This document shows positions 10,631 to 51,291 of a stretch of DNA of 58,521 nucleotides, piece by piece. How positions within the stretch are numbered: position 1 is the stretch's first letter; each line of letters opens with the position of its first letter. Made by a program: the position numbers and the translations under genes. This DNA is from Hyphomicrobiales bacterium (lineage in GTDB: Bacteria; Pseudomonadota; Alphaproteobacteria; Rhizobiales; WTKA01), in assembly GCA_011524605.1 (NCBI GenBank), contig WTKA01000037.1, forward strand, positions 1-58,521, read 5' to 3'. Below the pieces are notes generated by a model. That model worked only from the letters and a program-made list of their open reading frames with translations, was not told the origin of the DNA and searched no databases.

Positions 10631-10664
10631 AGCTCCCCCTTTATTATATTCTATTTAATGAATA

Positions 10665-11345
10665 CTATTGCTGTTCTTGTTCTTTACGCAATTTTTCAAG
10701 ATGTTCTTTACGTTTCTTTTCGGCTATTTCAAGCATGCGCTCATCCAGTTGCTTTTGTTGAGCAACTTGATCCTCAGCATTAAAACCTTCCCCATCAAAA
10801 GCTGCTGTAAAGCCTTTTAGCGAAACTGTGTAGCTTAACTCAGACACTCTAGGCGGTGGTGTTTTGAAAAAGACGCGCAAATTATTGCCAGCTTTCATAC
10901 GGCCAACAAGATCATTTTTCATTTCCAATTCAGCAAAACAACCATTTAATGCACAAATAGTGATTTTTCCAATTTCCACTTCGCCATCATCAATGCGTAC
11001 GGCAATACCTGGGGAAATTAAAATTGGCACGGGCACAAGGATAGAAAGCTGCTTTGGCTCAGTATCTGCTGAGTGACCAAGAGCAATCTGCCCTACAAGT
11101 AAGCCTTGAGGATTTCTGACATCACGTGACACAATACAATGACGCTTTTCAGGCTCAGTCGGGTTAGCATTACAGACTTTAATCCATTCTGCAGGATCAA
11201 AGTTTTGCTGCTGCGCTTGAGCTGTATTTCCTAGAGCGATAAAAAATCCGATTGCCAAGAAAATTTTTGATAATATTTTAGAATTTGCACTCAATTTTTC
11301 ATCTCTTTCTAAATTAAAATAAATGATTAGCAAAGTTGTATTCAA
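10665..11345 (-). CDS. Invasion-associated locus B (IalB) family periplasmic protein
   Basis: 226-aa ORF with a signal peptide (IFLAIGFFIALGNTAQAQ). It shows the IalB-like pattern W-x-K-x-C, LSILVP, and a C-x3-GC core, plus a lysine/glutamate-rich tail. The true start is probably downstream of the first ATG. Confidence 0.6.
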   Translation of the reverse strand: MNTTLLIIYFNLERDEKLSANSKILSKIFLAIGFFIALGNTAQAQQQNFDPAEWIKVCNANPTEPEKRHCIVSRDVRNPQGLLVGQIALGHSADTEPKQLSILVPVPILISPGIAVRIDDGEVEIGKITICALNGCFAELEMKNDLVGRMKAGNNLRVFFKTPPPRVSELSYTVSLKGFTAAFDGEGFNAEDQVAQQKQLDERMLEIAEKKRKEHLEKLRKEQEQQ

Positions 11346-21568: not shown

Positions 21569-22342
21569 ATGACATTTAATCCCCAAATTTTAGGTGATCA
21601 ATTTACTCAATCCATAATAGATTCCACCAGCTTAAGCGCGCTAGATGAAGAACAAAAACCAGCAAATTATGAACAAGCTTACGCGATACAAGACTATGTG
21701 TTTAATCAGCTGAATAGAAAATCTAGCGGTTGGAAAGTTGGATTAGGCAACAAGGCAGGTATGAATGCATTTAACCTTCCCTCGCCTGCGGCGGCTCGTA
21801 TGTATTCAGACAGCCTCTATGAAGTTGGCGAAACAATTGCTTTTGATCCCTTTTCAAAAATGGTGGTTGAGTTTGAAATAATATATAAAATTAAAAATAG
21901 AATTTCCCCAACAACAAAAATTGAAAATCCATTTGATTTTGTTGAATCCACTCATCTTGGCTTTGAACTTATACAGCCTCATATTAATGATTGGAAAACC
22001 CACGGCGCTTATCCTTTTGTTGCCGAAGGCATTGGTTTTTCAGCACTTGTTATTGACCCTGAACCCATGAAAATATCTCAGGCTGAACTATTAAACTCTA
22101 TCGAAATATATTGTGACAATGAAGTGCAGGCAAAAGCTGCAACGGGTGATAATGGTGTTGATCCTGAAGAAATGCTGCAATTTTTAATTTCACACTGCCA
22201 AGATAATGGTCACACCATACAAGCTGGTGATCTTATCTCTTCTGGCACCCAGACAGAGCAATTTGCAGTAACTATAGAAGATCATAAAATTGAAGCTAAA
22301 TGGAATGGCGGCGCAACGCATTTTACAATGACGGCGAAATGA
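21569..22342 (+). CDS. FAH-superfamily hydratase (2-keto-4-pentenoate hydratase-like)
   Basis: 257-aa ORF with AYAIQ, GWKVGLG and VEFEI motifs resembling the MhpD/HpcG hydratase family. The assignment is tentative. Confidence 0.5.
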   Translation: MTFNPQILGDQFTQSIIDSTSLSALDEEQKPANYEQAYAIQDYVFNQLNRKSSGWKVGLGNKAGMNAFNLPSPAAARMYSDSLYEVGETIAFDPFSKMVVEFEIIYKIKNRISPTTKIENPFDFVESTHLGFELIQPHINDWKTHGAYPFVAEGIGFSALVIDPEPMKISQAELLNSIEIYCDNEVQAKAATGDNGVDPEEMLQFLISHCQDNGHTIQAGDLISSGTQTEQFAVTIEDHKIEAKWNGGATHFTMTAK

Positions 22343-29956: not shown

Positions 29957-30910
29957 TCAAATATTTAAAGCAAGTGTTTTTCTTGCTTGATCGCTATCAC
30001 GATCCATCTGTGTAATCAAGGATTCGACACTATCAAAGTCCAATTCAGGTCTTTGCCAATCAATAAGCTCAATCTTTAAGGTCTTGCCATATATTTCGCT
30101 CTTAAAATCAAAAATATGCACTTCAAACAAAGGCTCACCATTATCAAATACCGGACGGCGACCATAGCTTGCGACGCCACCATAGATATTGCCATCATAT
30201 TGAATGCGAACTGCATAGATGCCAAATGCTAAATTCATATCTTTGCGCAAATGCAAGTTAGCCGTGGGATAGCCTAGGTCACGCCCCCGCTTGTCTCCAT
30301 GATAAACTTGCGAAGTGAAAGACCAAAAGCGTCCTAGTAATGCATTTGCTTCTTTTACGCACCCTGTTGACAGCAAATTTCTTATATAAGAAGAGGAAAT
30401 ATCAATTGACTGATCATTTGATAATTTATCTATCGCATTGATTATCACATTATGGGGCTTAGCTAGTCTTTGTAATAAGCTTACATCGCCTTTTCGGCCT
30501 TTTCCAAAATGGAAATCAGTGCCAACAAAAATCTCTCTTGCATTTAATTTTTCAAATAAAACATCTAACACAAAATTTTCAGCCTCTAATTGGCTTAAAG
30601 CAGCATCAAAATCCAATATAATGACTTCATCGATAGCTTGATCTATTAACAGCTGTTTTTTTTCATGAGCAAGTGTTAGTCTTTGCATCGGTGTAGAGGG
30701 GTTGAAAAAAGCCCGGGGATGCGGTTCAAATGTTAATATAGTTGATTTAAGCTCTTTTTGTTTTGATATTTCAACGCATTTTTCCAAAACAGCTTGATGG
30801 CCAAGATGCACGCCATCAAAATTGCCAATCGCAATACATCTGTGTTGTTTTGCATCAACACGATTAGATAAATCATTATATGAATATATATCAAACATAG
30901 CCATCTCCAA
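29957..30910 (-). CDS. ribF: Bifunctional riboflavin kinase / FAD synthetase
   Basis: 317-aa ORF with the FAD-synthetase motif IGNFDGVHLGHQ and a C-terminal riboflavin kinase domain (GYPTANL). It is upstream of ileS as in many bacteria. Confidence 0.9.
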   Translation of the reverse strand: MEMAMFDIYSYNDLSNRVDAKQHRCIAIGNFDGVHLGHQAVLEKCVEISKQKELKSTILTFEPHPRAFFNPSTPMQRLTLAHEKKQLLIDQAIDEVIILDFDAALSQLEAENFVLDVLFEKLNAREIFVGTDFHFGKGRKGDVSLLQRLAKPHNVIINAIDKLSNDQSIDISSSYIRNLLSTGCVKEANALLGRFWSFTSQVYHGDKRGRDLGYPTANLHLRKDMNLAFGIYAVRIQYDGNIYGGVASYGRRPVFDNGEPLFEVHIFDFKSEIYGKTLKIELIDWQRPELDFDSVESLITQMDRDSDQARKTLALNI

Positions 30911-30995: not shown

Positions 30996-31063
30996 CCATG
31001 CATTTTACGCAACGCTGCGCTGCAATAGTAGCACTTAACACAAGCACTAAAAAAGAGTACCCG
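30996..31063 (+). promoter_or_regulatory. Conserved 45-bp upstream box + promoter-like element, copy 1 (degenerate -10)
   Basis: CCATGCATTTTACGCAACGCTGCGCTGCAATAGTAGCACTTAACA ends in a TTAACA -35-like hexamer (31035-31040). Seventeen nt downstream reads TACCCG, a poor -10. Confidence 0.4.
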
Positions 31064-31126
31064 TTCAAGCAAGAAATAACAAATATTATACACATAATGA
31101 TATTATAAAATATCGGAGATATGCAA

Positions 31127-31273
31127 ATGAAAAACTCTTTATTACAATATAAAAAATGGCGTGCTTACAGAAAAAATGTAAATGAACTTTCTGCACTTTC
31201 AAATAAAGATTTACACGATTTAGGCATTAATCGCTATGATATTAAACGAGTTTGTAAACAGTCTGCGTTATAA
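31127..31273 (+). CDS. DUF1127 small protein, copy 1 (48 aa)
   Basis: Hand translation gives MKNSLLQYKKWRAYRKNVNELSALSNKDLHDLGINRYDIKRVCKQSAL. GGAG lies 8 nt upstream of the ATG. It matches the DUF1127 pattern (basic W-R-x-Y-R, L-S-x-L-x-D-L-G-I-x-R-x-D-I) and falls below the ORF-track size cutoff. Confidence 0.8.
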   Translation: MKNSLLQYKKWRAYRKNVNELSALSNKDLHDLGINRYDIKRVCKQSAL

Positions 31274-31297: not shown

Positions 31298-31373
31298 ATA
31301 TTTGGCTATTATCTCTCCAACCTGTCAAATATTTTTATAAAGACCCTTAGTTTCGGCTGAGGGTTTTTCTTTT
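31298..31373 (+). ncRNA. 3'-UTR two-hairpin module, copy 1 (CcsR/cuckoo-like, loop motifs degenerate) including terminator
   Basis: Hairpin 1 has stem 31298-31306 / 31324-31332 and loop TATTATCTCTCCAACCT. The terminator is CCCTTAG-TTTCGG-CTGAGGG followed by TTTTTCTTTT. The CCUCCUCC motif is eroded to CUCUCC or lost. Confidence 0.5.
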
Positions 31374-31500
31374 ATTGCAAAGTCTATTCAATTGACTATG
31401 CAGCAGCATATTTTTTATTCATAAATAATCATGGTTAAAAGCAGCTATAAAGGTTTGTTAAAAGACTAGAGAAATGCGTTTAGATCAGAAATATTCTAAT

Positions 31501-31568
31501 CCATGCACTTTATGCAATGCTGTGCTGCAATAGTATCACTTAACATATCCATGAAATAAGTTTATAAA
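31501..31568 (+). promoter_or_regulatory. Conserved 45-bp upstream box + sigma70-like promoter, copy 2
   Basis: The box is CCATGCACTTTATGCAATGCTGTGCTGCAATAGTATCACTTAACA. Promoter elements are -35 TTAACA (31540-31545), a 17-nt spacer and -10 TATAAA (31563-31568). Confidence 0.6.
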
Positions 31569-31606
31569 TATAGGCAAGAAACGAAACACGTATCGGAGAT
31601 ATGAAA

Positions 31607-31753
31607 ATGAAAAGCTCATATGGACAATTTAAAAAGTGGCGCACTTATAGAAAGACTGTCAATGAACTTTCAGCGCTTTCAAATAGAGATTTAAACGATT
31701 TAGGCATTCATCGTTGTGATATTAGACGCGTTTGTAAACAGTCAGTGTCATAA
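31607..31753 (+). CDS. DUF1127 small protein, copy 2 (48 aa)
   Basis: Hand translation gives MKSSYGQFKKWRTYRKTVNELSALSNRDLNDLGIHRCDIRRVCKQSVS, with the TATCGGAGAT RBS block upstream. Confidence 0.85.
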   Translation: MKSSYGQFKKWRTYRKTVNELSALSNRDLNDLGIHRCDIRRVCKQSVS

Positions 31754-31777
31754 TATAGTATAATTGTACTAACTTTT

Positions 31778-31858
31778 AGATATTTGACTATTTCCTCCTC
31801 CACTGTCAAATATCTTGATAAGAACCCTTAGCTCCTCCCGCTAAGGGTTTTTCTTTTT
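31778..31858 (+). ncRNA. 3'-UTR two-hairpin module, copy 2 (CcsR/cuckoo-like anti-SD sRNA candidate) including terminator
   Basis: Hairpin 1 has an 11-bp stem AGATATTTGAC / GTCAAATATCT (31778-31788 / 31805-31815) with loop TATTTCCTCCTCCACT. Hairpin 2 is ACCCTTAGC-TCCTCCC-GCTAAGGGT (31824-31848) followed by TTTTCTTTTT. Confidence 0.65.
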
Positions 31859-31950
31859 GTATAGAAGCAATTTAATTATAAAATCACAAAGCCTAAGCAT
31901 GTAAATTCCGACAAACATTAATAATGCGTTAAAAGCATGGAAAATATAAC

Positions 31951-32018
31951 CCATGCATTATTAACAATGCTGCGCTGCAATACCAGCATTTAACATAGGC
32001 GAAAATAGGGTGTATAAG
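31951..32018 (+). promoter_or_regulatory. Conserved 45-bp upstream box + sigma70-like promoter, copy 3
   Basis: The box is CCATGCATTATTAACAATGCTGCGCTGCAATACCAGCATTTAACA. Promoter elements are -35 TTAACA (31990-31995), a 17-nt spacer and -10 TATAAG (32013-32018). Confidence 0.55.
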
Positions 32019-32056
32019 TAAGAACAAGAAATAACAAACATATCGGAGATATGAAA

Positions 32057-32203
32057 ATGAAAAGCCCTTTAGTAAAGTTAAAAAAATGGAAAAATTACAG
32101 AAAGTCTGTAAATGAGCTTTCAGCGCTTTCAAATAAAGATTTAAACGATTTAGGTATTCATCGTTGCGATATTAAACGAGTTTGTAAACAATCAGTCTTA
32201 TAA
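32057..32203 (+). CDS. DUF1127 small protein, copy 3 (48 aa)
   Basis: Hand translation gives MKSPLVKLKKWKNYRKSVNELSALSNKDLNDLGIHRCDIKRVCKQSVL, with the TATCGGAGAT RBS block upstream. Confidence 0.85.
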   Translation: MKSPLVKLKKWKNYRKSVNELSALSNKDLNDLGIHRCDIKRVCKQSVL

Positions 32204-32230
32204 TAGAGATTGTTTAATCAATGACAAAAT

Positions 32231-32306
32231 ATTTGACTACGACCTCCTCCTAACAGTCAAATCTTGATAAGAACCCTCAGGCCCTCCCTTGAGGGTTTTT
32301 CTTTTT
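32231..32306 (+). ncRNA. 3'-UTR two-hairpin module, copy 3 (CcsR/cuckoo-like) including terminator
   Basis: Hairpin 1 has stem ATTTGACT / AGTCAAAT (32231-32238 / 32255-32262) with loop ACGACCTCCTCCTAAC. Hairpin 2 is ACCCTCAGG-CCCTCC-CTTGAGGGT followed by TTTTCTTTTT. Confidence 0.62.
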
Positions 32307-32416
32307 GTATAGAAGCAATTTAATTCATAAACTATAATTATAGCATCAGATAAGCGAAGCTATTATGCAACTTTAAATAACTTTATGAATTGCATTCAAT
32401 TCATCAGATTTATATT

Positions 32417-32484
32417 CCATGCATTTTATGCAATGCTGCACTGCGATAGTATCACTTAACATACACATAGAAAAAGATTATAAA
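32417..32484 (+). promoter_or_regulatory. Conserved 45-bp upstream box + sigma70-like promoter, copy 4
   Basis: The box is CCATGCATTTTATGCAATGCTGCACTGCGATAGTATCACTTAACA. Promoter elements are -35 TTAACA (32456-32461), a 17-nt spacer and -10 TATAAA (32479-32484). Confidence 0.6.
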
Positions 32485-32522
32485 TATAAGTATAGAATGA
32501 AACACATATCGGAGATGTGAAA

Positions 32523-32669
32523 ATGAAAAGCTCTTATGGACAGTTTAAAAAATGGCGCGCTTACAGAAAGACCGTAAATGAACTTTCAGCGCTTTCAAAC
32601 AACAAATTAAACGATTTAGGTATCGATCGTTCTGATATTAAAAGAATTTCAAAACAATCTATTATATAA
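32523..32669 (+). CDS. DUF1127 small protein, copy 4 (48 aa)
   Basis: Hand translation gives MKSSYGQFKKWRAYRKTVNELSALSNNKLNDLGIDRSDIKRISKQSII. The upstream in-frame ATG seen in copies 1-3 is GTG here, which supports the second ATG as the common start. Confidence 0.82.
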   Translation: MKSSYGQFKKWRAYRKTVNELSALSNNKLNDLGIDRSDIKRISKQSII

Positions 32670-32692
32670 TAGATTATTGTTTTACTAGATAT

Positions 32693-32773
32693 AAAATATT
32701 TGGCTATTTCCTCCTCCAACTGTCAAATATTTTAATAAGAACCCTCAGGTCCTCCCCCTGAGGGTTTTCTTTT
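32693..32773 (+). ncRNA. 3'-UTR two-hairpin module, copy 4 (CcsR/cuckoo-like) including terminator
   Basis: Hairpin 1 has a 12-bp stem (32693-32704 / 32722-32733, one G-U) with loop TATTTCCTCCTCCAACT. Hairpin 2 is ACCCTCAGG-TCCTCCC-CCTGAGGGT (32741-32765) followed by TTTCTTTT. Confidence 0.65.
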
Positions 32774-32835
32774 ATTGCAAGCCTGTTCAATTTATGAAAT
32801 ATGGTAACAATATTTTACAAAAGGCGCATATAATC

Positions 32836-34227
32836 ATGACAGGGCAGAAAAAAATCACAATCGTTGGCGCAGGACTTGCCGGTTCAGAAGCAGCATGGCA
32901 AGCAGCAAATCAAGGATGTCATGTTGATTTATATGAAATGCGACCGGTACAAAAAACAGATGTGCATCATACAGACCATTGCGCAGAGCTTGTTTGCTCC
33001 AATTCATTTCGCTCAGATGATGCTCTTAATAATGCCGTAGGTCTTTTGCATGCAGAAATGCGCACATTAGATTCTCTTATCATGCAATGTGCTGATGAGC
33101 ATCAAGTACCAGCAGGCGGCGCTTTGGCGGTTGATCGTGATAATTTCTCAAAAATGGTCACAGAAAAACTAGAATCTCATGAGAATATTCATTTGCATCG
33201 TGAAGAAATCACCGCAATTCCAGACCAAAATAATGGACCTGTCATCCTAGCAACAGGCCCCTTAACTTCAAAAAATCTTACAGCAGAAATTTTACAATTA
33301 ACGGGGCAAGATAGCCTTGCTTTTTTTGATGCAATAGCACCAATTGTTTATTTTGATAGCATTGATATGGATATATGCTGGTTTCAATCACGCTATGACA
33401 AGCCAGGGCCTGGTGGCACAGGGGCTGATTATATCAACTGCCCATTAAATAAAGAGCAATATGAATCGTTGATTGATGCACTCATTGATGGGGAAAAGAC
33501 TGATTTTAAAGAATTTGAAAAAAACACCCCCTATTTTGATGCCTGCTTACCTATTGAGGTCATGGCTGATCGCGGGAGAGAAACCCTTCGCTTTGGCCCT
33601 ATGAAACCAGTAGGTTTAACCAACCCTAATGATCCCGACGGTGATCTCTATGCTGTCGTGCAGCTTCGTCAAGATAATGCGCTCGGCACACTTTATAATA
33701 TGGTTGGTTTTCAAACTAAATTAAAATATGGTGCTCAAAAAGAAGTATTTAAAACAATACCGGGTCTTCAAGAGGCTGAATTTGCGCGTCTTGGCGGCAT
33801 GCATCGAAATACATATATCAATTCACCTGAACTCTTAGATAGCTATCTGAGAGTTAAATCAGCGCCACATATTCGATTTGCAGGGCAAATCACAGGGGTG
33901 GAAGGCTATGTAGAAAGTGCTGCATTAGGTCTTGTTTGTGGACGATTGGCAGCTGACGAAGTTTTAGAACGTGATCTTAAATTGCCTTGTAAAACAACGG
34001 CTCATGGCTCTCTTGTTAATCATATTACTGGTGGGCATTTGTCTGATCCAACAAATGGCATCAAAACTTTCCAGCCGATGAATATCAATTTTGGCCTTAT
34101 GCCTTCTATTGATGTCCCAAGGGAAATAGATGGCAAACGCTTACGAGGCAAAGAAAAAAGCCGCGCTAAAAAGACTTTACAAGCAAAACGTGCTTTAGAA
34201 AATATTATTGCATTTAAAGAAGTCTGA
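32836..34227 (+). CDS. trmFO: Methylenetetrahydrofolate--tRNA-(uracil54-C5)-methyltransferase TrmFO (Gid)
   Basis: FAD fold [16 protein letters not shown] and TrmFO length. The ORF is open from 32794, but that ATG abuts the upstream terminator and the conserved N-terminus begins at MTGQKK (32836). Confidence 0.88.
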
Positions 34228-38356: not shown

Positions 38357-39823
38357 TCACTTTGCCTGCCGTCTTGCTCTTACAATTAATATGACAATAG
38401 AAAAAACAAACACATATTCCAAACGAGCGACAATCATTAAGATTGCAGATAATAATATTGTAAATTCTGAATAAACAAGAAAAGGCTCAATATCACTTGA
38501 TTGTCCGCGCAACAAACCTGCATAGTCTAAGACGCCACCAGAATTTGACACAATTGCCGTTGCATTTAATAGGGCATATTCAAAATTTGCCCCCTCTAAT
38601 CCATAAATACAAATAAGTAGGATTAGTAAAATAATAAGACTTGTTACAATCATCCAAATACGGCGCATTCTTTGAAGCTCATACCCTTCTTGTGATTGTT
38701 TTTTAAGCGCCAAATTGGGGTAGATCATGGATAGCAAATCATTCAAAATTTGTTTTTTTAAAAATAATAATCGCGATAATTTAATCCCGCCTGAAGTAGA
38801 TATACTAATCCCCCCAATTAAGGAGAGCATGATAACGAGCGGAATAGAAATAAGATGATCTTTATCACCAAAAGAGACATAACCTGTTGAAATAGCTAAA
38901 AATATATCACTTATCATTTTTAAAAAATAATTCAGAAAAGAAATCTCATTATCTACTTTAAAGAATGACATAAAAAAGACGATAACAAAGATTGAGATAA
39001 TGATAGAGCCTATCAACTTTTGTTCTTCTCTAATATTATCTTTACGGTTAGAAGAAAGTGTTATGACCATAATCCATAACATGCCACTGATCGATATTAA
39101 CATCACTAAGCTACTAAAAAACTGAAAAGCATATTTTGAAATATTAAAATCTGGCGTATAATGCAAAAATAAAGAGCCCGTAGCAGGCAGAACAAAAGCA
39201 CTTCTAATACCAATAATGAAGTCAGTTGAAATGGTTGAAAAAATAAGAGCGACAGTAAGACTAAAAGCAAAATAAATAACAGCAAGGCGCATAGGAATTA
39301 CACTTGTTTCAATTCCTTCGCGGGGACGGCTATCTAAACGGCGGTTCAACCTTTTTTCAACAGACCGGTAACGGCGTGAATAGGACAAAACCCAGAAACT
39401 TATCAAGGTGAGATAGCCCCCAATCCATTGGCAATAATCATACCAAATTAAAAAACCCTCAGCATTAAACCGCCATGTAGTAGAAAGAGGAATACCAGTT
39501 GTTGTTAATGCATTAGTCGAAATAAAAAAGCTTCTGATACCGCTTTCATCTAACATGAAAAAGATGGGAATTGCCATGGTCACGCAAAGCATGAGCCAAA
39601 CTGAAACAATGAATAAAACGGGGCTTACGCGCAAGATGCGTATAAGGAAATCAGAGAAGGCAAAATAATAAAAGAGGCTAAGTGCGACTAATAAAATTGA
39701 ACAAAAAAATAAAACAGGAACTTGCCCCGCTGTGTTACTCGCATACATAACAATTGCAATAATACATAAAGCAGCGGCTGAAAGGTTGATTAAAAAAAAG
39801 GGGAGCTTTCTTAGTGTAACCAC
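38357..39823 (-). CDS. trkH: TrkH-family potassium uptake membrane protein (divergent)
   Basis: 488-aa polytopic ORF with pore-loop-like motifs (NALTTTG, SISTSGGIK, VSNSGG). It sits directly downstream of trkA. Confidence 0.6.
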   Translation of the reverse strand: MVTLRKLPFFLINLSAAALCIIAIVMYASNTAGQVPVLFFCSILLVALSLFYYFAFSDFLIRILRVSPVLFIVSVWLMLCVTMAIPIFFMLDESGIRSFFISTNALTTTGIPLSTTWRFNAEGFLIWYDYCQWIGGYLTLISFWVLSYSRRYRSVEKRLNRRLDSRPREGIETSVIPMRLAVIYFAFSLTVALIFSTISTDFIIGIRSAFVLPATGSLFLHYTPDFNISKYAFQFFSSLVMLISISGMLWIMVITLSSNRKDNIREEQKLIGSIIISIFVIVFFMSFFKVDNEISFLNYFLKMISDIFLAISTGYVSFGDKDHLISIPLVIMLSLIGGISISTSGGIKLSRLLFLKKQILNDLLSMIYPNLALKKQSQEGYELQRMRRIWMIVTSLIILLILLICIYGLEGANFEYALLNATAIVSNSGGVLDYAGLLRGQSSDIEPFLVYSEFTILLSAILMIVARLEYVFVFSIVILIVRARRQAK

Positions 39824-39886: not shown

Positions 39887-41263
39887 CTAAAAATAATCAA
39901 TGCCCACTCTAAACATTTTTTCAGCAGCTTCCAACTTTTCAATTTCATAGAACATGATCACTCTGTCCCCCGCTTTAATAATAAAATCTCCTGTTGGTTT
40001 GATTATACTACTATCACGAATAATTGCGCCAATTCTTATGCCTTCCATATCCTGAAGCGCCCTTAGCTTTTTGCCAATCATCGGTGTGGTAGGCAAAACC
40101 TCAGCTTCTATAATTTCTCCCAAACCATTTTGGAAACTATGGACAGATCGAATACGGCCACGTCTGACATGCTTTAAAACACGGGAAACAGTAACACTTC
40201 TAGGATTAACGAATGTATCAATTTTCAACTCATCCACAAGATCATGATAGCCAGGGTTATTCACTAAGCACATAGTGCGCGTGGCGCCGCTTTTTTTTGC
40301 TAAAACTGCTGATAAGAGATTAGTCTGATCATCATTTGTCAAAGAAATAAATACATCTACGGCTTTAATATTCGCTTCTTGCAAGATTTCTGGCGAACGA
40401 GAATCGCCTTCTATGACAACACTTCGTTGCAATTCACTCGCTGCTTTTAGGGCAATATTGCGATCGCGCTCAAGTATTTTAATTTTAGCGCTTGGACGTC
40501 TTATTTCCAATTCAGAAGCAAGATAACGACCGATATTGCCGCCGCCTGCAATGACAATACGAGACCCCTCTTCTTCATCATGCCCAAAAATACTAAGCGT
40601 ACGTGTCACATGTTCATTATTACACACAACATAGGCAATATCGCCTTCTAGTAACGAATCTGTACTATGGGGAATGAAAAGATGATCCCCTCGGTTAATC
40701 CCCACGACAATGGCAGTTAGGTCAGGAAATAGAGTATCTAACTGCCTCAAAGGCGTGTCAATAACTGGGCATTCTTCATCGCAAATAATGGCCATAGCAG
40801 CAATTTTTTCATCTGCAAATAACGCAAATTCATTCGCTCCAGGCAACATAAGACGGCGCATAATTTCCTCACCAACTTCAAGCTCAGGTGAGATAATTAC
40901 GTCAATTGGCAAATTATCTCTCGAGAAAAGCTGTTGCCATTGTTGATCAAGGTAAGATCTAGCGCGAATGCGCGCTAAGCGCGTTGGAATCTCAAATAAA
41001 GAATGGCCAATTTGACAAGCCATCATATTTACTTCATCAGATAGGGTAACTGCAATTAATAAATCTGCATTTTCGGCTCCTGCTCGTTCCAAAATATCTG
41101 GGTGGGAGCCAAAGCCGACAATACCATTAACATCATATAGCTCTGAAATTGCTTCTACTAGAGCGGGTTGGGTATCAATAACAGTGATATTATGCCCTTC
41201 AAGAGCCAATTTTTCAGTAATGCCAAGCCCAACTTGCCCAGCACCACAAATGATAATATCCAT
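39887..41263 (-). CDS. trkA: Trk system potassium uptake protein TrkA
   Basis: 458-aa ORF with two NAD-binding RCK-N domains (IICGAGQVG, IAGGGNIG), each followed by an RCK-C domain. Confidence 0.9.
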   Translation of the reverse strand: MDIIICGAGQVGLGITEKLALEGHNITVIDTQPALVEAISELYDVNGIVGFGSHPDILERAGAENADLLIAVTLSDEVNMMACQIGHSLFEIPTRLARIRARSYLDQQWQQLFSRDNLPIDVIISPELEVGEEIMRRLMLPGANEFALFADEKIAAMAIICDEECPVIDTPLRQLDTLFPDLTAIVVGINRGDHLFIPHSTDSLLEGDIAYVVCNNEHVTRTLSIFGHDEEEGSRIVIAGGGNIGRYLASELEIRRPSAKIKILERDRNIALKAASELQRSVVIEGDSRSPEILQEANIKAVDVFISLTNDDQTNLLSAVLAKKSGATRTMCLVNNPGYHDLVDELKIDTFVNPRSVTVSRVLKHVRRGRIRSVHSFQNGLGEIIEAEVLPTTPMIGKKLRALQDMEGIRIGAIIRDSSIIKPTGDFIIKAGDRVIMFYEIEKLEAAEKMFRVGIDYF

Positions 41264-41353
41264 ATGATGATATACCTATTTAATTCTTTCATAAACATGT
41301 AGCAGTTGTTGCGCTAACTTTCAACATAATGCGCATTATAGTATAGAGCAATA

Positions 41354-42718
41354 TTAATTGCTAATACCAAGGCTTTTCAACTTTCTATGCAAGGCGGAGC
41401 GTTCCATACCAACAAATTCAGCCGTTTTAGATATATTACCACTAAATCGAGAGATTTGTGCTTTGAGATAATCGCGTTCAAAAGATTCACGCGCCTCACG
41501 TAAAGGCAAGGACAAGATTAAAGAAGCACTACCCCCCGATGCTGAGATTTGAGAACTGCCAGCTGTTTCTTGTTTAAGCATATCAAGGGTTATTTCGCTG
41601 CTATCACTTGCTAGGATTAAAAGTCGCTCAATCGTATTTCTTAATTGCCTCACATTGCCAGGCCATTGCTCTGCTTGCAGGGCTAAAACAAGCTCATTGC
41701 TTAGCGCTTTGGGTGCCATACCTGTTGCTTGTGAAATTTGATAAATGAAATGCTCTGCTAAAATTGGCAAATCATCCATACGGTTGATAAGGCTTGGCAC
41801 TTGCACAGGCACTACGCTAATTCGATGATAAAGATCGCTTCTAAATGAACCGTCTTTGATCATATTCTCTAAATTTCTACTTGAAGAGGATATAATTCTA
41901 ACGTCAACCTCTACAGCTGAAGTCCCTCCAACTCGTGTAAAACGCTGTTCGGTTAATACACGCAATATTTTTGATTGCGTTCCAAGGGGCATATCTGAAA
42001 TTTCATCAAGATATAATGTACCCCCATGGGCAGCTTCTAATGTACCTGTAACCTGCTGATGCGTAATGTCTTTTTCCCGCCCAAATAAAGCTAATTCCAT
42101 TTTATCAGGTGTAATTGCGGAGGCATTTATTGTTACAAAGGGGGCTTTTGCACGCGTTGAATTTTTATGAACCCAACGGGCAGCGAGCTCTTTGCCAGTA
42201 CCCGCGGCTCCTGAAATAAGAATCCGCGCATTTGTAGGGGCTATTTTCTGCAATTGCTGCTTAAAAAGAGTGAAGGAATTAGAAATGCCAAGCATTTCAT
42301 GGGCTTGGTCATCTCGCTTTTTGAGATCAGAAACTTCTCTTTTTAAAGAATTATTTTCTAATGCACGTTCTGCAACCAATAATAAACGGTCAATTTTAAA
42401 CGGCTTTTCAATATAATCATAGGCGCCATTTTTTACAGCCGTAACCGCTGTTTCAATATTACCATGCCCTGAAATCATCACAACAGGCAAGCTACTATGG
42501 ATTTGAGTGATTTCTTTGAGAAGTTCAAGACCGTCAAGTCGGCTGCCTTGCATCCAAATATCTAGAAAAATCATTGAGGGTAGTCTTTTTGATATTTGCT
42601 CTAAAGCACTATCAGCATCATGAGCTAGACGCGTACTATATCCCTCGTCACTCAATAAGCCTGAAATTAGCTCTCGAATATCTTCTTCATCATCAATAAT
42701 TAATATATCTGCAGACAT
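41354..42718 (-). CDS. ntrX: Response regulator NtrX (receiver + AAA+ + HTH, no GAFTGA)
   Basis: 454-aa ORF with a receiver domain (ILIIDDEEDIR...FLDIWM), Walker A GAAGTGKE and a C-terminal HTH. The GAFTGA loop is absent, as in NtrX. It is downstream of ntrY. Confidence 0.85.
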   Translation of the reverse strand: MSADILIIDDEEDIRELISGLLSDEGYSTRLAHDADSALEQISKRLPSMIFLDIWMQGSRLDGLELLKEITQIHSSLPVVMISGHGNIETAVTAVKNGAYDYIEKPFKIDRLLLVAERALENNSLKREVSDLKKRDDQAHEMLGISNSFTLFKQQLQKIAPTNARILISGAAGTGKELAARWVHKNSTRAKAPFVTINASAITPDKMELALFGREKDITHQQVTGTLEAAHGGTLYLDEISDMPLGTQSKILRVLTEQRFTRVGGTSAVEVDVRIISSSSRNLENMIKDGSFRSDLYHRISVVPVQVPSLINRMDDLPILAEHFIYQISQATGMAPKALSNELVLALQAEQWPGNVRQLRNTIERLLILASDSSEITLDMLKQETAGSSQISASGGSASLILSLPLREARESFERDYLKAQISRFSGNISKTAEFVGMERSALHRKLKSLGISN

Positions 42719-42776
42719 GTGCTCTTTCGTTTTTTACCTTGCCTCTTAAGAGGTCTTAAAATATTTAAAATAATAT

Positions 42777-45011
42777 TTACATCTCAACACTAACGCTACT
42801 AATTTCTGGGAATAGCAGTTTTACGCAAGCACCATTTGGCTTTGACCCTATAGCAGCATCTAACAATTCAATACTACCCTCATGGTCTTCCATTATTCTA
42901 GATACAATTGCAAGTCCTAATCCAGATCCCTTATCACGTGTTGTTACGTAAGGTTCTAATAGTTGATTGCGGTTTTCTGCAGGCCAACCAATGCCAGAGT
43001 CTATAATCTCTATTGCACGTCGACCGTCAGCTTGTTCTTGTAATCGCACCAAAAGCTGTGCCTCTTCGGTGCCTAATTCCTTATTGCGCTCAATTGCTTC
43101 AAAACCATTTTTCACCAAATTAATAATCATTTGAGAAAAGAGCTGTTCATCAAGCCTTGCATTGAGCACTATATCTGGAATTTCTATATCAAACTTAATG
43201 TGTTCAGGCTTTCCAAGCTCTTGCAAGTCTAAAACCTCTCTTAAAACAACAGATATATCCCTAACTTCAAGCTGTGCTTTTGGCATACGAGCAAATGAAG
43301 AAAACTCATCAACCATTTGCTGTAAATCACCGACTTGGCGAATAATTGTTTTTGTACATTGGTCAAATACAGTATCATCTTCTGGTACAAGCTTTCTGTA
43401 GCGGCGAGATAATCTTTCAGTGGCCAATTGTATCGGTGTGAGGGGGTTTTTAATTTCATGCGCTATTCTTCTTGCCACATCTCCCCATGCGGAACGTTTT
43501 TGTGCTTGCATCAAATCAGTTATATCATCAAAAGTGACGATATATTCTCCAGAGCGGCTGCCTCTTGCCCCCAAAATTTGAAATCTAATTCTAAAATGCC
43601 GGTCTTCACCTTTCACAAGCACAGGAATACTCAATGTTTGCTGTCTTGTATGCCCCTTTTTAGGTAAGCTCTCTTCAATTTCAGGTATAATATCACTAAC
43701 GCTCATGCCAATAAGTGTTTTTTTTGCTGAAATTCTTAAGTTTTTATGAGCCATTTCATTAGCTAGGATAATTTTACCATGACTATTACAGCCTAAAACG
43801 CCTGAACTTACCCCAGATAGGACGGCTTCTGTAAATTGTCTTCTCTTATTTAACAGAACTGTATTTTGTAAGAGCTGATTTTGCTGATCTCGTATTTCTA
43901 AACTCATCGTATTAAATGTATCTGCTAAAAGCGACATATCATCTTCATGGGCATCAACCTCTACCTGTGCACCAAGCTCTCCATCTTTAATGCGAGAAGC
44001 TGCCCTGATAAGCTTATGGATTGGAAATACGATGCGCCCTGTTAAGGATAGCCCCAGCCAAACAGCTGAGAAAAGAACCATAAGTACAAGAAGAGAATAC
44101 ATTAAAAAAAATGCAAATTGCTGGAAACGAGAATCCTGCTTAATATTTTTAAATGCATTCAAATCACCATCGACCTGATTAAATAAAGCGCGCGCTTTTG
44201 GATTGAGCCTCCTAGTAATCAAAACAACACGATTTTGATTCAAAGATAAAGGTATCAAGGCGCCATATTGACCTTGCGCATCAGCGGTTAGAATAACGAC
44301 TTGATTATTTTCCAAGGCTTGATTAAGCGCAACAACAGGGGGAGGTCTAAATAAACTGCTATTGTCTGTAGAGGATAAATATAGCGCATTTCCATCATTA
44401 TCAGTGATGGCAACTGAAGAAAGTGCTCTAATATTAGCTTGTTCGCTTATAAATTGATTGATTTGAGTGTCATTTCGTTCTTCACGATTTAAAAAAAATC
44501 TAAGTGATGCCGTTAATCCCACAAGTTCTGCTCTTAAGGCAGAATTTTGTGTAGAAATATATTCTATAGCAATGCTCTCAATAGAGGCAGACAAGCGATC
44601 TGCACGCGCACTATAAATTTGACGCGGCCCTTCATTCAATACAATCAACGAGAAGGCAGAAACAATGATTACAGGCACAACAGAAACAAGTGTAAAAAGA
44701 CTGATGATACGCAAATAAAGATTAGTGGCAGCTTGACGCTCTCGCCTTGCTTTTACTAATCGAAAAATTTGCAGACTAATCAGAAGGCCTAAGACAAAAA
44801 TAGCAACTAAATTCGCATAGATCGAATATTGTAAGATGATCGTATTATTGCTAAATCGAGACCCCAGTAAAAAGACAAATAAAAATGACGATACCCCAAT
44901 AAATAGAGAGATCATAAATATGACAGATGAAAATCTTGAAGGCCTGATTTGTCGATCAGCCTTTTCAATTTTCTCGCTTAAAGCAGCCTGTTTTTTAGGA
45001 CTCAGGGACAA
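42777..45011 (-). CDS. ntrY: Sensor histidine kinase NtrY
   Basis: 744-aa ORF with N-terminal TM segments, HAMP and PAS regions, the H-box RRIAHEIKNPLTPIQL and ATPase G-boxes (DSGIGW, GSGLGLAIV). Confidence 0.88.
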   Translation of the reverse strand: MSLSPKKQAALSEKIEKADRQIRPSRFSSVIFMISLFIGVSSFLFVFLLGSRFSNNTIILQYSIYANLVAIFVLGLLISLQIFRLVKARRERQAATNLYLRIISLFTLVSVVPVIIVSAFSLIVLNEGPRQIYSARADRLSASIESIAIEYISTQNSALRAELVGLTASLRFFLNREERNDTQINQFISEQANIRALSSVAITDNDGNALYLSSTDNSSLFRPPPVVALNQALENNQVVILTADAQGQYGALIPLSLNQNRVVLITRRLNPKARALFNQVDGDLNAFKNIKQDSRFQQFAFFLMYSLLVLMVLFSAVWLGLSLTGRIVFPIHKLIRAASRIKDGELGAQVEVDAHEDDMSLLADTFNTMSLEIRDQQNQLLQNTVLLNKRRQFTEAVLSGVSSGVLGCNSHGKIILANEMAHKNLRISAKKTLIGMSVSDIIPEIEESLPKKGHTRQQTLSIPVLVKGEDRHFRIRFQILGARGSRSGEYIVTFDDITDLMQAQKRSAWGDVARRIAHEIKNPLTPIQLATERLSRRYRKLVPEDDTVFDQCTKTIIRQVGDLQQMVDEFSSFARMPKAQLEVRDISVVLREVLDLQELGKPEHIKFDIEIPDIVLNARLDEQLFSQMIINLVKNGFEAIERNKELGTEEAQLLVRLQEQADGRRAIEIIDSGIGWPAENRNQLLEPYVTTRDKGSGLGLAIVSRIMEDHEGSIELLDAAIGSKPNGACVKLLFPEISSVSVEM

Positions 45012-45079
45012 AATAAATCCTCAATTAAAATAATTTCATTTTACAAAATTATGAAGCGCTTATCACAATGCGCTATCCA

Positions 45080-46528
45080 TTATATTTTTGTTGCTTTCAT
45101 CTCTATATCATGTTCACGAATTTTTTTTCGTAAAGTATTCCTATTAATACCTAAAAGAGAGGATGCTTTAATTTGGTTGCCTTTTGTTGCGGATAGAGCC
45201 GCGCTAATTAAAGGCCCTTCTACATCAAAAATAATCTTGTCATATAAACCATCAGGGGGTAATTCTCCCTCATATTGACCAAAATACCAAGCGAGATAAT
45301 TTTCTGCAGCACTTCTTAAATCAGAAACCTGATTACTCTGCAAAGAAATTTCGGTTTCGATATTCTCTTTTTTTATCTCTTGCAAAATCGTAAGACCAGA
45401 AATCTCTTCTTCTGAATGCAACGCAGCCATGCGACGTACTGTATTTTCTAATTCTCTAATATTGCCTGGCCATTCATAGCTTTGCATCTGCTCTATTGCT
45501 TCTTTAGAAAATTTCTTGATAGGCAGCCCTTCTTTATAGCATTGAGACAAAAAATGATCCACAAGGTCTGGAATATCTTCAAGGCGTGTTCTAAGCGGTG
45601 GGAGGTTGATAGGCACAACATTTAATCTGTAGAATAAATCTTCTCTAAACTGCCCCTTATCAATTCTCTTTTTCAAATCTTGGTGTGTCGCAGCAATAAT
45701 CCGTACATTTGCTTTAATAGGTGAACGACCACCAACGGTCGTATACTCTCCCTCTTGCAAAACACGTAATAATCTTGTTTGCGCATCAATTGGCATATCG
45801 CCAATTTCATCTAAAAAGAGCGTTCCCCCTTCGGCCTGTTCAAAGCGCCCTGCTGATCTTGCTTGAGCGCCAGTGAAAGCTCCTTTTTCATGGCCAAATA
45901 ATTCTGACTCAATGAGATCTTTTGGAATAGCTGCCATATTTAAAGCAACAAAAGGCCCGTTTTTCCTTTTGCCAAAATCATGAAGCGCTTTAGCAACAAG
46001 TTCTTTACCCGTACCACTCTCGCCGTAAATAATAACGGTCAACTCTGTATGCATCAGCTTTGCTAAAGTTCTATAGACATTCTGCATTGCCATAGACCGC
46101 CCAACGATAGGCAGCTGATCCTCTTCATCATTTTCGAGTTTTTTCTTTTCCTGCTTTTTCTTGCGCTCTAAAATAGCATTGCCGATAACAGATGTAAGTT
46201 CATTTATATCAAACGGCTTTGGTAAATATTCAAAGGCGCCAGCCTCAGAAGCGCGAATAGCAGTCATAACCGTATTTTCCGCACTCATCACAATGAAAGG
46301 TAGATTTGGCCGTGCTTCTCGAATTTTTGGTAATACGTTGAATATATTTTCATCAGGCAATACAACATCAGTCAGCAAGACATCACCTATGCCTTGCCCA
46401 ATCCAGTTCCACAAAGTAGCTATATGGCTTGTTGCTCTTACCGTATAGCCTGCTCTGGTTAGAGACTGATTTAAAACTGTGCGGATTGTTGTGTCATCTT
46501 CAACAATTAATACTACCGGTTCACTCAT
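45080..46528 (-). CDS. ntrC: Nitrogen regulation protein NtrC (sigma54-dependent response regulator)
   Basis: 482-aa ORF with a receiver domain, Walker A GESGTGKE, an intact GAFTGA loop and a C-terminal Fis-type HTH. Confidence 0.9.
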
Positions 46529-46572
46529 ATATCTATCTCATCTTAAAATAATTTTTCTAGGCCTCAGCAATA

Positions 46573-47670
46573 TTATTTATTCTTATACATTGGCATTAAA
46601 ACAGAAAATTTCGTATAGTTATCATCTCTTTGGCACTCAATAATGCCACCATGATCATCAATAATTTTAGCTACAAGAGCCAGTCCAAGCCCTGTTCCAT
46701 TTTGTTTAGTTGTCATGAAAGGATCAAATAAAGTTTCTTTAATGGCTTCTGAAAACCCTGAACCATTATCCTTTATTGTTATTTCTAAAGGCAAAGAAAC
46801 ACGCTCATTACTAGCAGGCATTAGAAATTTTATCCCTGGCCTAAAAGCAGTAATGACCTCTATTTGCCCATCCTCACGATTATCATCAATGGCTTCTGAT
46901 GCGTTTTTTATCAAATTCATAAAAACTTGTATAAGTTGATCCATATCCCCAACCATGTCAGGTAGCGAGGGGTCATAGATTTCTTTAAACGTAACATGAG
47001 CGCCAAAGCCAAGCTTTGCGCTATTCACAACACGGTTTAGCACTGCATATATATTAACTGCATCTTGCTTGAGTGGCTTTTGATCATTAAAAACCTGCAT
47101 TCGATCAACAAGTCCAACAATGCGATCTGCTTCATCTTTAATCATATAGGTGAGTGCTTTATCCTCTGAAGATACAGAATCTTCTAAGAGTTGCGCAGCG
47201 CCCCTTATACCAAAAAGAGGGTTTTTTATTTCATGGGCTAATATGCTCGCCATACTCATGACAGAGCGTGCGGCTCCCCTATGATGAAAATGACGGTCAA
47301 TTTTGTCTGCAATTGTTCTTGGTTGAAGCATCATAACAATATCAGCTCCATGATCATCAATCACATCAACAAATATATCTGTTGCTACGGATGTATTTAG
47401 CCGAGGCGAGCGTATCTCAACCTGATGTTCATATATGGGAGAAGATGTCTTACGAACAAGGGAGATTAGATCCATTATAGGACTATCAAAATCAACCAGA
47501 TCGCTTAATGCATGCTTTATTATTAAGGCGCGACCAATTTCAAAAAAAGTTTCAGCAGCCGTGTTTAAATATACAAGCTTGTTATCGCTATCCAAACAAA
47601 CGACAGGACGTGGCAAAATATCTAAAATAGAATTTGATAAGCTTTTATCCGTTATTTCTAAAGTACCCAT
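46573..47670 (-). CDS. ntrB: Nitrogen regulation sensor kinase NtrB
   Basis: 365-aa cytoplasmic PAS + HisKA (LAHEIKNPL) + HATPase (DNGSGF, GTGLGLALV) protein, immediately upstream of ntrC. Confidence 0.88.
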   Translation of the reverse strand: MGTLEITDKSLSNSILDILPRPVVCLDSDNKLVYLNTAAETFFEIGRALIIKHALSDLVDFDSPIMDLISLVRKTSSPIYEHQVEIRSPRLNTSVATDIFVDVIDDHGADIVMMLQPRTIADKIDRHFHHRGAARSVMSMASILAHEIKNPLFGIRGAAQLLEDSVSSEDKALTYMIKDEADRIVGLVDRMQVFNDQKPLKQDAVNIYAVLNRVVNSAKLGFGAHVTFKEIYDPSLPDMVGDMDQLIQVFMNLIKNASEAIDDNREDGQIEVITAFRPGIKFLMPASNERVSLPLEITIKDNGSGFSEAIKETLFDPFMTTKQNGTGLGLALVAKIIDDHGGIIECQRDDNYTKFSVLMPMYKNK

Positions 47671-47686
47671 GATATTTCTTCTTACT

Positions 47687-48691
47687 TTATGCGGCTAATT
47701 TTAAATTTTCTAAAGAGAAAATCTCTGAGATATAGAGCCTCACTTTTTGAGGATCATTCTCGCTAAGCAATTTCTTTCGATAGATTGTAAGAGCATTTTC
47801 ATTTTTCATATAATATGTTTCTAAAAACCAGCCTAAATGCTTTCGCGCATTTCTCACCCCTAGATTAACCCCATAAAATTCCAGCATATCTTCATAATGA
47901 CAAAGTATAAATTCTGCTGGCTCATATTGTTGATAATCATTTGATATATCGTTAAGATCGTTTTGTATTTGCTTGACAATCCAAGGCTTACCGCAAGCGC
48001 CGCGACCAATCATAACACCATCGGCACCTGATTGCTTTAAAGCTGCCTTTGCATCTTCAAGAGATAATATATCTCCGTTAACAAGGGCAGGTAATGGAGT
48101 TGATTTTGTCACCTTTTTGACCTTTTCCCAATCTGCCTGCCCTTTGTAAAATTGGCATCGTGTACGACCATGAATAGTGAGCCATGCAATGCCTTCATTA
48201 TAAGCAATTTTTGCTAATTCATCAGCGTTTAAAGAGTTATCATCCCAGCCAAGTCTCATTTTCAAAGATACAGGCTTATCAGCGCCTTTAACAATGGCTT
48301 TGATAATCTCTTGAGCGAGTGGCAAATCACGCATTAAAGCGGAACCAGAAGCCCCTGCTGTTACTTGTTTTGCAGGGCAACCCATATTAATATCAATAAC
48401 ATCTGCTCCATTTGCACAAGCTAGCCGTGCGCCCTCTCCCATCCAGTAAGGCTCCCGTCCCGCCAGCTGAACGATATGCGGTGTGATGCCTGCTGATAAA
48501 GCGCGCTGAACACAATCCTTCCGTTCTTTGAGATATTCCGAGCTTGCAACCATTTCTGAAACAACATAATCGACACCAAAATATGCAGCGAGCTTTCTAA
48601 ATGGCACGTCAGTAATGCCCGATAAAGGCGCCAAAAAGACGGGTGTTGAAACTGAGATTGGAAATGGAAATTTTGCCATATTTTTGAACAA
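47687..48691 (-). CDS. dusB: tRNA-dihydrouridine synthase B (NifR3 family)
   Basis: 334-aa ORF with the DINMGCPAKQV FMN/catalytic-Cys motif. It holds the conserved position as first gene of the dusB-ntrBC operon. Confidence 0.9.
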   Translation of the reverse strand: MFKNMAKFPFPISVSTPVFLAPLSGITDVPFRKLAAYFGVDYVVSEMVASSEYLKERKDCVQRALSAGITPHIVQLAGREPYWMGEGARLACANGADVIDINMGCPAKQVTAGASGSALMRDLPLAQEIIKAIVKGADKPVSLKMRLGWDDNSLNADELAKIAYNEGIAWLTIHGRTRCQFYKGQADWEKVKKVTKSTPLPALVNGDILSLEDAKAALKQSGADGVMIGRGACGKPWIVKQIQNDLNDISNDYQQYEPAEFILCHYEDMLEFYGVNLGVRNARKHLGWFLETYYMKNENALTIYRKKLLSENDPQKVRLYISEIFSLENLKLAA

Positions 48692-50948: not shown

Positions 50949-51209
50949 ATGGCATCGGAAAAATCTCACAATCTGCAAGACACTTTTTTAAATGGTGTTA
51001 GAAAAGCAAAAATATCGGTTACAATTTTCTTAGTAAATGGCGTAAAATTACAGGGTATAGTCACTTGGTTTGATAACTTTTGCGTTCTACTTAGACGCGA
51101 CGGCCACTCTCAACTTGTTTATAAGCATGCAATATCAACAATTATGCCTGCCTCACCTATCCCAACCTTTGAAAATCATGGTGATGAAGAAGAAACTTCT
51201 GAATCATGA
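50949..51209 (+). CDS. hfq: RNA chaperone Hfq
   Basis: 86-aa ORF with Sm1/Sm2 motifs: [10 protein letters not shown]...[13 protein letters not shown]...FDNFCVLL...[13 protein letters not shown]. Confidence 0.95.
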
Positions 51210-51291
51210 TTTTTACTATCATTGATTTACCTTAACTATATGACAGCTAATACCATAATTATAATTTGCGTAAAAATAAGGAATTATTTTT

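Follow-up and report, generated by a model that had tools for sequence, protein, structure and literature searches.

A tandem array of small DUF1127 genes was analyzed in a 58,521-bp stretch of DNA from a Hyphomicrobiales bacterium (contig WTKA01000037.1, assembly GCA_011524605.1; hereafter, the window). The array occupied 30.9–32.8 kb of this low-GC alphaproteobacterial sequence and consisted of four co-oriented repeats of ~450 bp with a mean column identity of 78%. It was bounded on the left by ribF, encoding FAD synthetase/riboflavin kinase (29957–30910, minus strand, assigned by Pfam), and on the right by trmFO, encoding tRNA U54 methyltransferase (32833–34227, plus strand, Pfam GIDA)—the gene that defines the genomic neighborhood known as CIN1. 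The left flank was shared by a metagenomic congener of the organism. Every repeat contained a promoter region, a DUF1127 gene, a 3′ module, and a terminator; thus, the whole unit was indeed present four times, as the initial annotation of this DNA had proposed.

The products of all four open reading frames (ORFs) belonged to PF06568 (DUF1127), with scores of 41.8–52.9 bits against a gathering threshold of 23.3 bits. The genes were located on the plus strand at 31127–31273 (unit 1, E 1.3e-11), 31607–31753 (unit 2, E 2.9e-14), 32057–32203 (unit 3, E 9e-11), and 32523–32669 (unit 4, E 4.2e-12), the last having an ortholog in the congener (P0005). With translation taken to start at the second ATG, which lies 8 nt downstream of GGAG, each gene has 48 codons; the 48-aa forms are those present in the protein database, and an exact-protein lookup with the unit 2 product in its 50-aa form returned no record. 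The Shine–Dalgarno (SD) segments (31110–31122, 31590–31602, 32040–32052, and 32506–32518) were the most conserved part of the units and had the sequence (A)TATCGGAGAT(A/G)T. They contain a small inverted repeat, ATATC-GGA-GATAT, that could put GGAG in or beside the loop of a mini-hairpin and could serve as a translational control element or a protein-binding site.

Folding yielded two independent hairpins in the 3′ untranslated region (UTR) of each of the four genes, with z-scores of −3.8, −7.0, −2.9, and −4.7 for units 1–4, respectively. In units 2–4, hairpin 1 began 24–28 nt past the DUF1127 stop codon, was A/U-rich, comprised 8–13 bp, and exposed CCUCCUCC in a 16–17-nt loop; hairpin 2 was a GC-rich terminator of 12–13 bp with the loop UCCUCCC or CCCUCC, followed by a T-run. 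The module of unit 2 (31778–31852, plus strand, as are the others) consisted of hairpin 1 at 31778–31815 (11 bp, loop UAUUUCCUCCUCCACU) and the terminator at 31820–31852 (loop UCCUCCC); that of unit 3 (32231–32299) of hairpin 1 at 32231–32262 (8 bp, loop ACGACCUCCUCCUAAC) and the terminator at 32270–32299 (loop CCCUCC); and that of unit 4 (32692–32768) of hairpin 1 at 32692–32734 (13 bp, loop UAUUUCCUCCUCCAACU) and the terminator at 32738–32768 (loop UCCUCCC). The initial annotation had assigned an anti-SD two-hairpin module to every unit. The loops and stem sequences of copies 2–4 were as it described them, but in unit 1 (hairpin 1 at 31298–31332 and terminator hairpin at 31339–31368) both stems were intact while the loops had decayed to UAUUAUCUCUCCAACCU (UCUCUCC) and UUCG, the CCUCC seed being absent.

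The sequence CCTCCTCC occurred four times on the plus strand of the window, three of them within these loops, and never on the minus strand; TCCTCCTCC was found twice against 0.11 expected. The 7-mer YCCTCCC by itself was not above chance (4 vs. 3.75 expected in the window), and, by these counts, only its placement in the terminator loops is telling. A terminator scan recovered the terminators of all four units: six sites were found vs. 1.3 expected, two of which were nested alternatives in units 3 and 4. When the predicted full-length transcripts were folded, both hairpins stayed separate modules with free loops.

The identity among six units varied strongly from segment to segment: 40% far upstream, 82% in a 33-bp upstream box, 81% in the −35 region, 54% in the promoter spacer, 43% in the 5′UTR, 92.5% in the SD region, 79% in the coding sequence, 45% from the stop codon to hairpin 1, and 77–84% in the hairpin arms. 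Judged from these values, constrained blocks alternate with free spacers along the unit. In hairpin 1, CCUCCUCC was invariant in six of the seven loops of the two species, and the remaining loop positions varied freely. The terminator stem covaried between copy 2 (ACCCTTAGC/GCTAAGGGT) and copy 4 (ACCCTCAGG/CCTGAGGGT) at pairs 79/93 and 82/90, confirming the two compensatory pairs reported initially. Compensatory changes were found in 4 of the 24 predicted pairs among seven close units. In a model-fitted alignment of 30 sequences including distant homologues, 96.8% of the cells paired vs. 72.6% in shuffled and 34–49% in slid-partner controls, and 23 of the 24 pairs changed on both sides.

At Rfam gathering thresholds, only two tRNAs were detected in the window. 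With permissive thresholds, the search with Rfam models that the initial annotation had suggested gave ar14 (RF02344) as the sole consistent family, with 45.6 bits in unit 2 (E 1.1e-6), 45.1 bits in unit 4 (E 1.5e-6), and 31.7 bits in unit 3 (E 0.0014), all below the gathering score of 58.8; unit 1 had no ar14 match even with permissive thresholds. Loops 2 and 3 of the ar14 model (CCUCCUCCC) aligned in register with the two window loops. RF02344 has three hairpins with a CCUCCUCCC loop in each, of which only model hairpins 2 and 3 were matched; the first fell on a poorly structured, non-conserved spacer with mismatched or trivial stems. Reciprocally, a covariance model built from the four window units and three congener units (R1) found only these four sites in the window, with 114 bits for unit 2, and weakly matched (24–38 bits) same-strand RNAs beside trmFO in Pararhizobium, Sinorhizobium, Mesorhizobium, Chelativorans, and others. 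RNAs at the loci matched by R1 obtained ar14 scores of 64–120 bits from Rfam.

The related cuckoo RNAs are defined in Reinkensmeier and Giegerich (2015; PMC4615179) by two to four adjacent hairpins of 24–50 nt, each of at least 6 bp and with linkers of up to 10 nt, every loop being 9–27 nt long and containing CCUCCUCCC or a listed variant. The hairpins of the array agreed with the first part of this definition (hairpin 1, 32–43 nt and 8–13 bp; hairpin 2, 30–33 nt and 12–13 bp; linkers, 3–7 nt). They departed from the loop rule as worded there: the hairpin-2 loops were 6–7 nt long, and unit 1 had neither motif. In the same source, CIN1 is a cuckoo RNA flanked on one side by an OG1 gene of unknown function and, in many cases, on the other by a tRNA methyltransferase gene (OG7). 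OG1 was later recognized as DUF1127, and the locus includes Rhodobacter CcsR1–4 with CcaF1 and Sinorhizobium meliloti NfeR (PMC8034643). The array has the same adjacency, with DUF1127 genes identified by Pfam and trmFO immediately downstream. The link to DUF1127, noticed at the outset as a resemblance, thus holds; since it is the already published defining context of CIN1, its novelty is smaller.

Among the matches listed, 80 Hyphomicrobiales trmFO loci (L001–L080) were taken as a synteny panel. A DUF1127 gene lay directly 5′ of trmFO in most of them, and clusters of CCTCCTCC were present at the Rhizobiaceae and Phyllobacteriaceae loci and not at those of Bradyrhizobium or Afipia. The DUF1127–trmFO linkage was also seen in Bradyrhizobium, Afipia, Xanthobacteraceae, and Bosea, without CCUCCUCC clusters and mostly without the composite LsrB/VtlR box described below; the linkage of the protein gene to trmFO is therefore broader than the small RNA (sRNA). 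Taken together, the sub-threshold ar14 matches, the reciprocal R1 matches, and the CIN1 synteny mark the modules as diverged positional homologues of the cuckoo/ar14/NfeR1/CcsR RNAs and not as a new kind of element. The cuckoo/CcsR type proposed initially is upheld by these three lines and falls short in that the scores stay below the gathering score and a full CCUCCUCCC 9-mer is absent. Because the Rfam threshold, the three-hairpin architecture, and the loop rule are not matched, we describe the modules as diverged homologues; they most likely work like cuckoo RNAs and are not formal members by current models.

Upstream of all four units, ~71 nt before the predicted transcription start, we found a box of the form TGCA-N6-(G/A)CAW-N3-TG-N3-T. 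This pattern occurred four times in the window vs. 0.45 expected, on the plus strand only and in these units only. The promoter of unit 2 (31501–31568) comprised the box (31501–31532), the −35 element TTAACA (31540–31545), a 17-nt spacer, and the −10 element TATAAA (31563–31568). In unit 3 (31951–32018), the box had ACAA for GCAA and was followed by TTAACA (31990–31995) and TATAAG (32013–32018); in unit 4 (32417–32484), the box (32417–32448) was followed by TTAACA (32456–32461) and TATAAA (32479–32484). The box of unit 1, CCATGCATTTTACGCAACGCTGCGCTGCAATA (30996–31027), contained TGCA-N6-GCAA-N3-TG-N3-T, and its core promoter region (31035–31063) had a −35-like TTAACA and a diverged −10 position, TACCCG; the leader of this unit carried a 25-nt insertion in the 5′UTR.

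The LsrB site in the NfeR1 promoter is TGCA-N6-GCAT at −72 to −57 (PMC10746234). The VtlR box, GCAT-N3-TG-N3-T, drives small DUF1127-type genes and AbcR sRNAs in Brucella and Agrobacterium, and VtlR directly activates the DUF1127 small-protein genes (PMC7486931). Read letter by letter, the composite box merges these two published motifs, with the fourth half-site base being A in the window boxes and not the published T, and the half-site of unit 3 being ACAA. Sixteen other genomes, including Mesorhizobium, Sinorhizobium, and Rhizobium, carried the composite box in the same orientation at their DUF1127/cuckoo locus; in Sinorhizobium (L078), it was located 71 nt before the ar14 start, in agreement with the −72 to −57 position of the LsrB site in the NfeR1 promoter. 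The single opposite-strand match across all fetched loci fell within the DUF1127/cuckoo neighborhood. As the four promoters share the box at an equal distance, the units appear to be wired to one regulator, with co-regulated dosage as the result; the presence of one LsrB/VtlR-type box in all four promoters argues against the independent tuning assumed in the initial annotation. A conserved promoter was absent between the stop codon and hairpin 1, as judged from the segment identities, and the module is therefore most simply part of a ~280-nt DUF1127 transcript.

The array can be compared with three characterized systems. With the cuckoo RNA family and ar14, including S. meliloti NfeR1 (Smr14C), it shares adjacent hairpins with CCUCCUCC-type anti-SD loops, of which the last is the terminator, and the DUF1127–trmFO neighborhood; a putative LsrB-type box also lies ~71 nt before the transcription start predicted for the window. 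Unlike these RNAs, the window modules have two hairpins instead of three, a non-conserved spacer replacing the first ar14 hairpin; their stems are A/U-rich, and the second seed is cut to 6–7 nt, occupying the entire terminator loop. In addition, the box precedes the DUF1127 ORF and not the sRNA itself, and complete gene-plus-sRNA units are present in four copies. In the ccaF1–CcsR1–4 locus of Rhodobacter sphaeroides (PMC8034643), a DUF1127 gene is likewise followed by two-hairpin anti-SD sRNAs on the same transcript (predicted in our case). R. sphaeroides has one ORF, four sRNA repeats, an RpoHI/HII promoter, and one terminator, whereas in the window, each sRNA comes with an ORF, a terminator, and a promoter with an LsrB/VtlR-type box of its own. 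The VtlR/LsrB-activated genes of Brucella abortus (bab1_0914/bab2_0512) and Agrobacterium tumefaciens (atu1667) similarly encode DUF1127 proteins of ~48 aa behind a GCAT-N3-TG-N3-T-type box. The Agrobacterium locus L069 (presumably containing atu1667 itself) and locus L075 had single trmFO-linked units of the box, DUF1127, a 3′UTR hairpin, and a terminator, with partial CUCCUCCC/CCUCC loops; loci of this type have one or two units and weaker loop motifs, while the window has four units, three of them with clean CCUCCUCC seeds.

The organism represents an isolated low-GC lineage (~38% GC). Its TrmFO shared 95% identity with that of one metagenomic congener, and no other match exceeded 69%. In a TrmFO search of genome contigs, the best identity was 62–67% among the matches listed, with no close genome; the contigs of the next-best TrmFO proteins (69%) had no DUF1127 gene upstream. 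For the DUF1127 proteins of the window, only two close relatives were found among 5.8 billion clusters. The congener contigs (L081–L084) likewise carried ribF, a DUF1127 array of at least three distinct units, and trmFO. The first and last units were orthologous between the window organism and the congener; thus, the array is older than the split of the two organisms. The loops of the first congener unit were intact (UUUCCUCCUCCUAAA / UCCUCCUCC and CUCCUCCCG), and the decay in unit 1 of the window is therefore recent and lineage-specific. Compared with L081, L083, and L084, the Logan contig L082 had the promoter of congener unit 2 fused to the coding region of the last unit. This contig (row rel_last of alignment A3) is apparently array-collapsed and served the segment identities only; copy numbers from short-read assemblies of the locus are unreliable. 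Among the 80 loci listed, DUF1127 genes beside trmFO numbered two at most, and a Pararhizobium locus (L074) had the order ar14, DUF1127, ar14, DUF1127. Set against these loci, the window is the extreme of a known theme. A metagenome pattern scan for hairpin 1 gave four matches, none with DUF1127 or a second hairpin, and they were rejected as unrelated or chance. Two of the four, on metagenomic contigs of ~20% GC (L085, 5646–5675; L086, 2736–2765), had a hairpin, CAUUUGAUUAUUUCCUCCUCCAAUAUCAAAUAA, near-identical to hairpin 1, which may be chance or an unrelated anti-SD hairpin.

Most probably, four self-contained transcription units, all tandem duplicates of an ancestral DUF1127–cuckoo–trmFO (CIN1) locus, make up the array and produce dual-function RNAs. 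Anatomy, conservation pattern, covariation, synteny, and the box were read from the DNA itself. Each unit would start with an LsrB/VtlR-type activator box, a sigma-70-like promoter (TTAACA-17-TATAAA), and a short leader with a GGAG SD site, followed by a 48-codon DUF1127 gene (CcaF1/SDP-type) and a 100-nt 3′UTR, in which an A/U-rich hairpin would expose (U)CCUCCUCC in a large loop and an intrinsic terminator would expose (U/C)CCUCC(C). The resulting ~280-nt transcript would be a dual-function RNA, its 3′ module being active within the full-length mRNA or once released, presumably by an endonucleolytic cut in the non-conserved A/U-rich spacer, as by RNase E on Rhodobacter CcsR. The C/U-rich loops would anneal to ribosome-binding sites of the GGAGG type in target mRNAs, thereby preventing the initiation of their translation. 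In this scheme, the transcription starts, RNA processing, involvement of Hfq, target mRNAs, and regulator are all inferred. The steps lean partly on characterized relatives: NfeR1 represses translation through C/U-rich loops that bind GGAGG-type ribosome-binding sites (PMC10746234), and CcsR is released from mRNA by RNase E and influenced by the DUF1127 protein CcaF1 (PMC8034643). By analogy with CcaF1, the small DUF1127 protein may affect how its own sRNA matures or how stable this sRNA is; it may also act on PhoR (PMC12501420). The amplification would raise the dose under one regulator, with no separate control. Having lost both seeds and with a diverged −10, unit 1 is at most a protein gene with a terminator.

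A more specific version can be put forward only tentatively and with considerable doubt: in this isolated low-GC lineage, the DUF1127–cuckoo locus would have become a set of four dual-function transcripts of ~280 nt, all controlled by a single LysR regulator that responds to redox state or nutrients. Each would encode a CcaF1-like RNA-binding peptide governing the release of the anti-SD sRNA from that transcript's 3′UTR or the stability of this sRNA. If true, it would be a self-contained, dosage-amplified protein–sRNA feedback module with one copy caught losing its sRNA half.

Several observations weigh against the main explanation of four dual-function units. Every ar14 score is below the Rfam gathering score, so that RF02344 membership by score does not hold; the full 9-mer CCUCCUCCC is in no loop, hairpin-1 loops holding CCUCCUCC at 8 of 9 positions; and the terminator loops, with 6–7 nt, fall short of the 9 nt that the cuckoo thermodynamic matcher requires. 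Unit 1 shows that loss of the seeds is possible. The pair changes in the 30-sequence alignment were counted after fitting to the model, which favors the structure, and, with one congener only, close-range conservation rests on seven units. Of the window ORFs scanned, none encoded a LysR-type regulator. Target prediction with the loops as seeds, proposed in the initial annotation, did not succeed within the window: the scan of loops against initiation regions gave duplexes not above background, and the initiation region of ntrB, a known NfeR1 target, paired poorly with the loops (−5 kcal/mol).

The failure of the window scan to yield targets would suit an alternative in which the hairpins are merely the 3′ end of the DUF1127 mRNA—a stabilizing stem plus an intrinsic terminator—and the C/U loops are cuckoo relics with no role in trans. 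In each of the four units, hairpin 2 has the form of a classical terminator, compensatory changes in its stem are expected for any terminator, and unit 1 keeps both stems despite losing both seeds. Yet, CCUCCUCC is invariant in six of seven loops while the adjoining spacer (45% identity) varies, stabilization needs no open loop of 16–17 nt, and the same motif is functional in NfeR1 (PMC10746234); we therefore regard this explanation as improbable. The loops might also act in cis, binding GGAG in the mRNA that carries them or in that of the following unit and thereby adjusting DUF1127 translation, as the transcripts hold both the conserved SD region ATCGGAGAT (92.5% identity) and the anti-SD loops, and the leader of another S. 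meliloti DUF1127 gene shows pairing between its ribosome-binding site and a C-rich stretch (PMC12218461). We consider this highly improbable: the own SD site is GGAG(A) only and a poor match for CCUCCUCC, the duplexes predicted between the loops and the initiation regions of the four DUF1127 genes are unremarkable (−6.4 to −9.7 kcal/mol vs. a background mean of −6.2), the minimum-energy folds leave the loops free, and strong terminators separate the units.

It is also quite unlikely that the modules are independent sRNA genes with their own promoters at the ORF ends and are not 3′UTR-derived. A TATAAT/CATAAT hexamer overlaps the stop codon in units 1–4 and in two congener units, a consensus scan gave two promoter-like sites in unit 2 (31732–31764), and S. 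meliloti NfeR1 does have its own promoter (PMC10746234). However, a conserved −35 partner is absent, promoter-like sites show no excess over expectation in this AT-rich region (10 vs. 11.3), conservation is lacking between the stop codon and hairpin 1 (45%), and the sole conserved regulatory box is upstream of the ORF. In addition, in the GC-rich homologues L012 and L043, the sRNA begins right after the stop codon, leaving no room for a promoter. An internal sRNA promoter at the stop codon is thus unlikely, and the modules are better regarded as 3′ parts of the DUF1127 transcripts.

Some other features of the window were noted. The distance from the unit 4 terminator to the trmFO start codon is ~64 nt (32769–32835), and a TATAAT hexamer, kept in the congener, lies 3 nt before the trmFO ATG; trmFO mRNA may therefore be leaderless. 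The best predicted loop partner in the window, and the only one to stand out, was a class I/II aminotransferase gene (9473–10630, minus strand), with −12.8 to −16.2 kcal/mol, which is not clearly above background. Its start region (10631–10650) contains a G-rich ribosome-binding site, AAGGGGGAGCUAUG, with the SD AAGGGGGAGCU, and an IalB-family gene (10665–11345) adjoins it. A dusB–ntrB–ntrC–ntrY–ntrX–trkA cluster is encoded at 39887–48691 (minus strand); in S. meliloti, the homologous sRNA NfeR1 represses ntrBC. The gene hfq, whose presence was pointed out initially, is in the window (50949–51209) but is uninformative, being located 18 kb away in an unrelated hfq–hflX pair (50949–52656, plus strand); the encoded Hfq has an unusual acidic C-terminal tail. 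Two ORFs, at 38357–39823 (minus strand, 488 aa) and 21569–22342 (plus strand, 257 aa), had no match in Pfam at E ≤ 1e-5/1e-6.

The observation stands, and most of its initial interpretation was correct, yet it concerns a known family in a known genomic context and brings no new mechanism to light. Its novelty is modest: a complete promoter–gene–sRNA–terminator unit has been amplified four-fold, the modules have two hairpins and carry their second seed in the loop of the terminator, one copy has decayed, and the lineage is isolated and not among the families for which cuckoo RNAs were listed in 2015. The cuckoo/ar14/CcsR family and its link to DUF1127 and LsrB/VtlR are thereby extended to a deep-branching AT-rich lineage, whose modules would be missed by the Rfam threshold and the rules of the thermodynamic matcher. 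The LsrB and VtlR motifs would be two halves of one conserved site, common to DUF1127 and cuckoo promoters across families. With three intact-seed units and one decayed unit with a diverged −10, all preceded by the same box, the array may serve as a natural series for distinguishing the roles of the sRNA half and the protein half.

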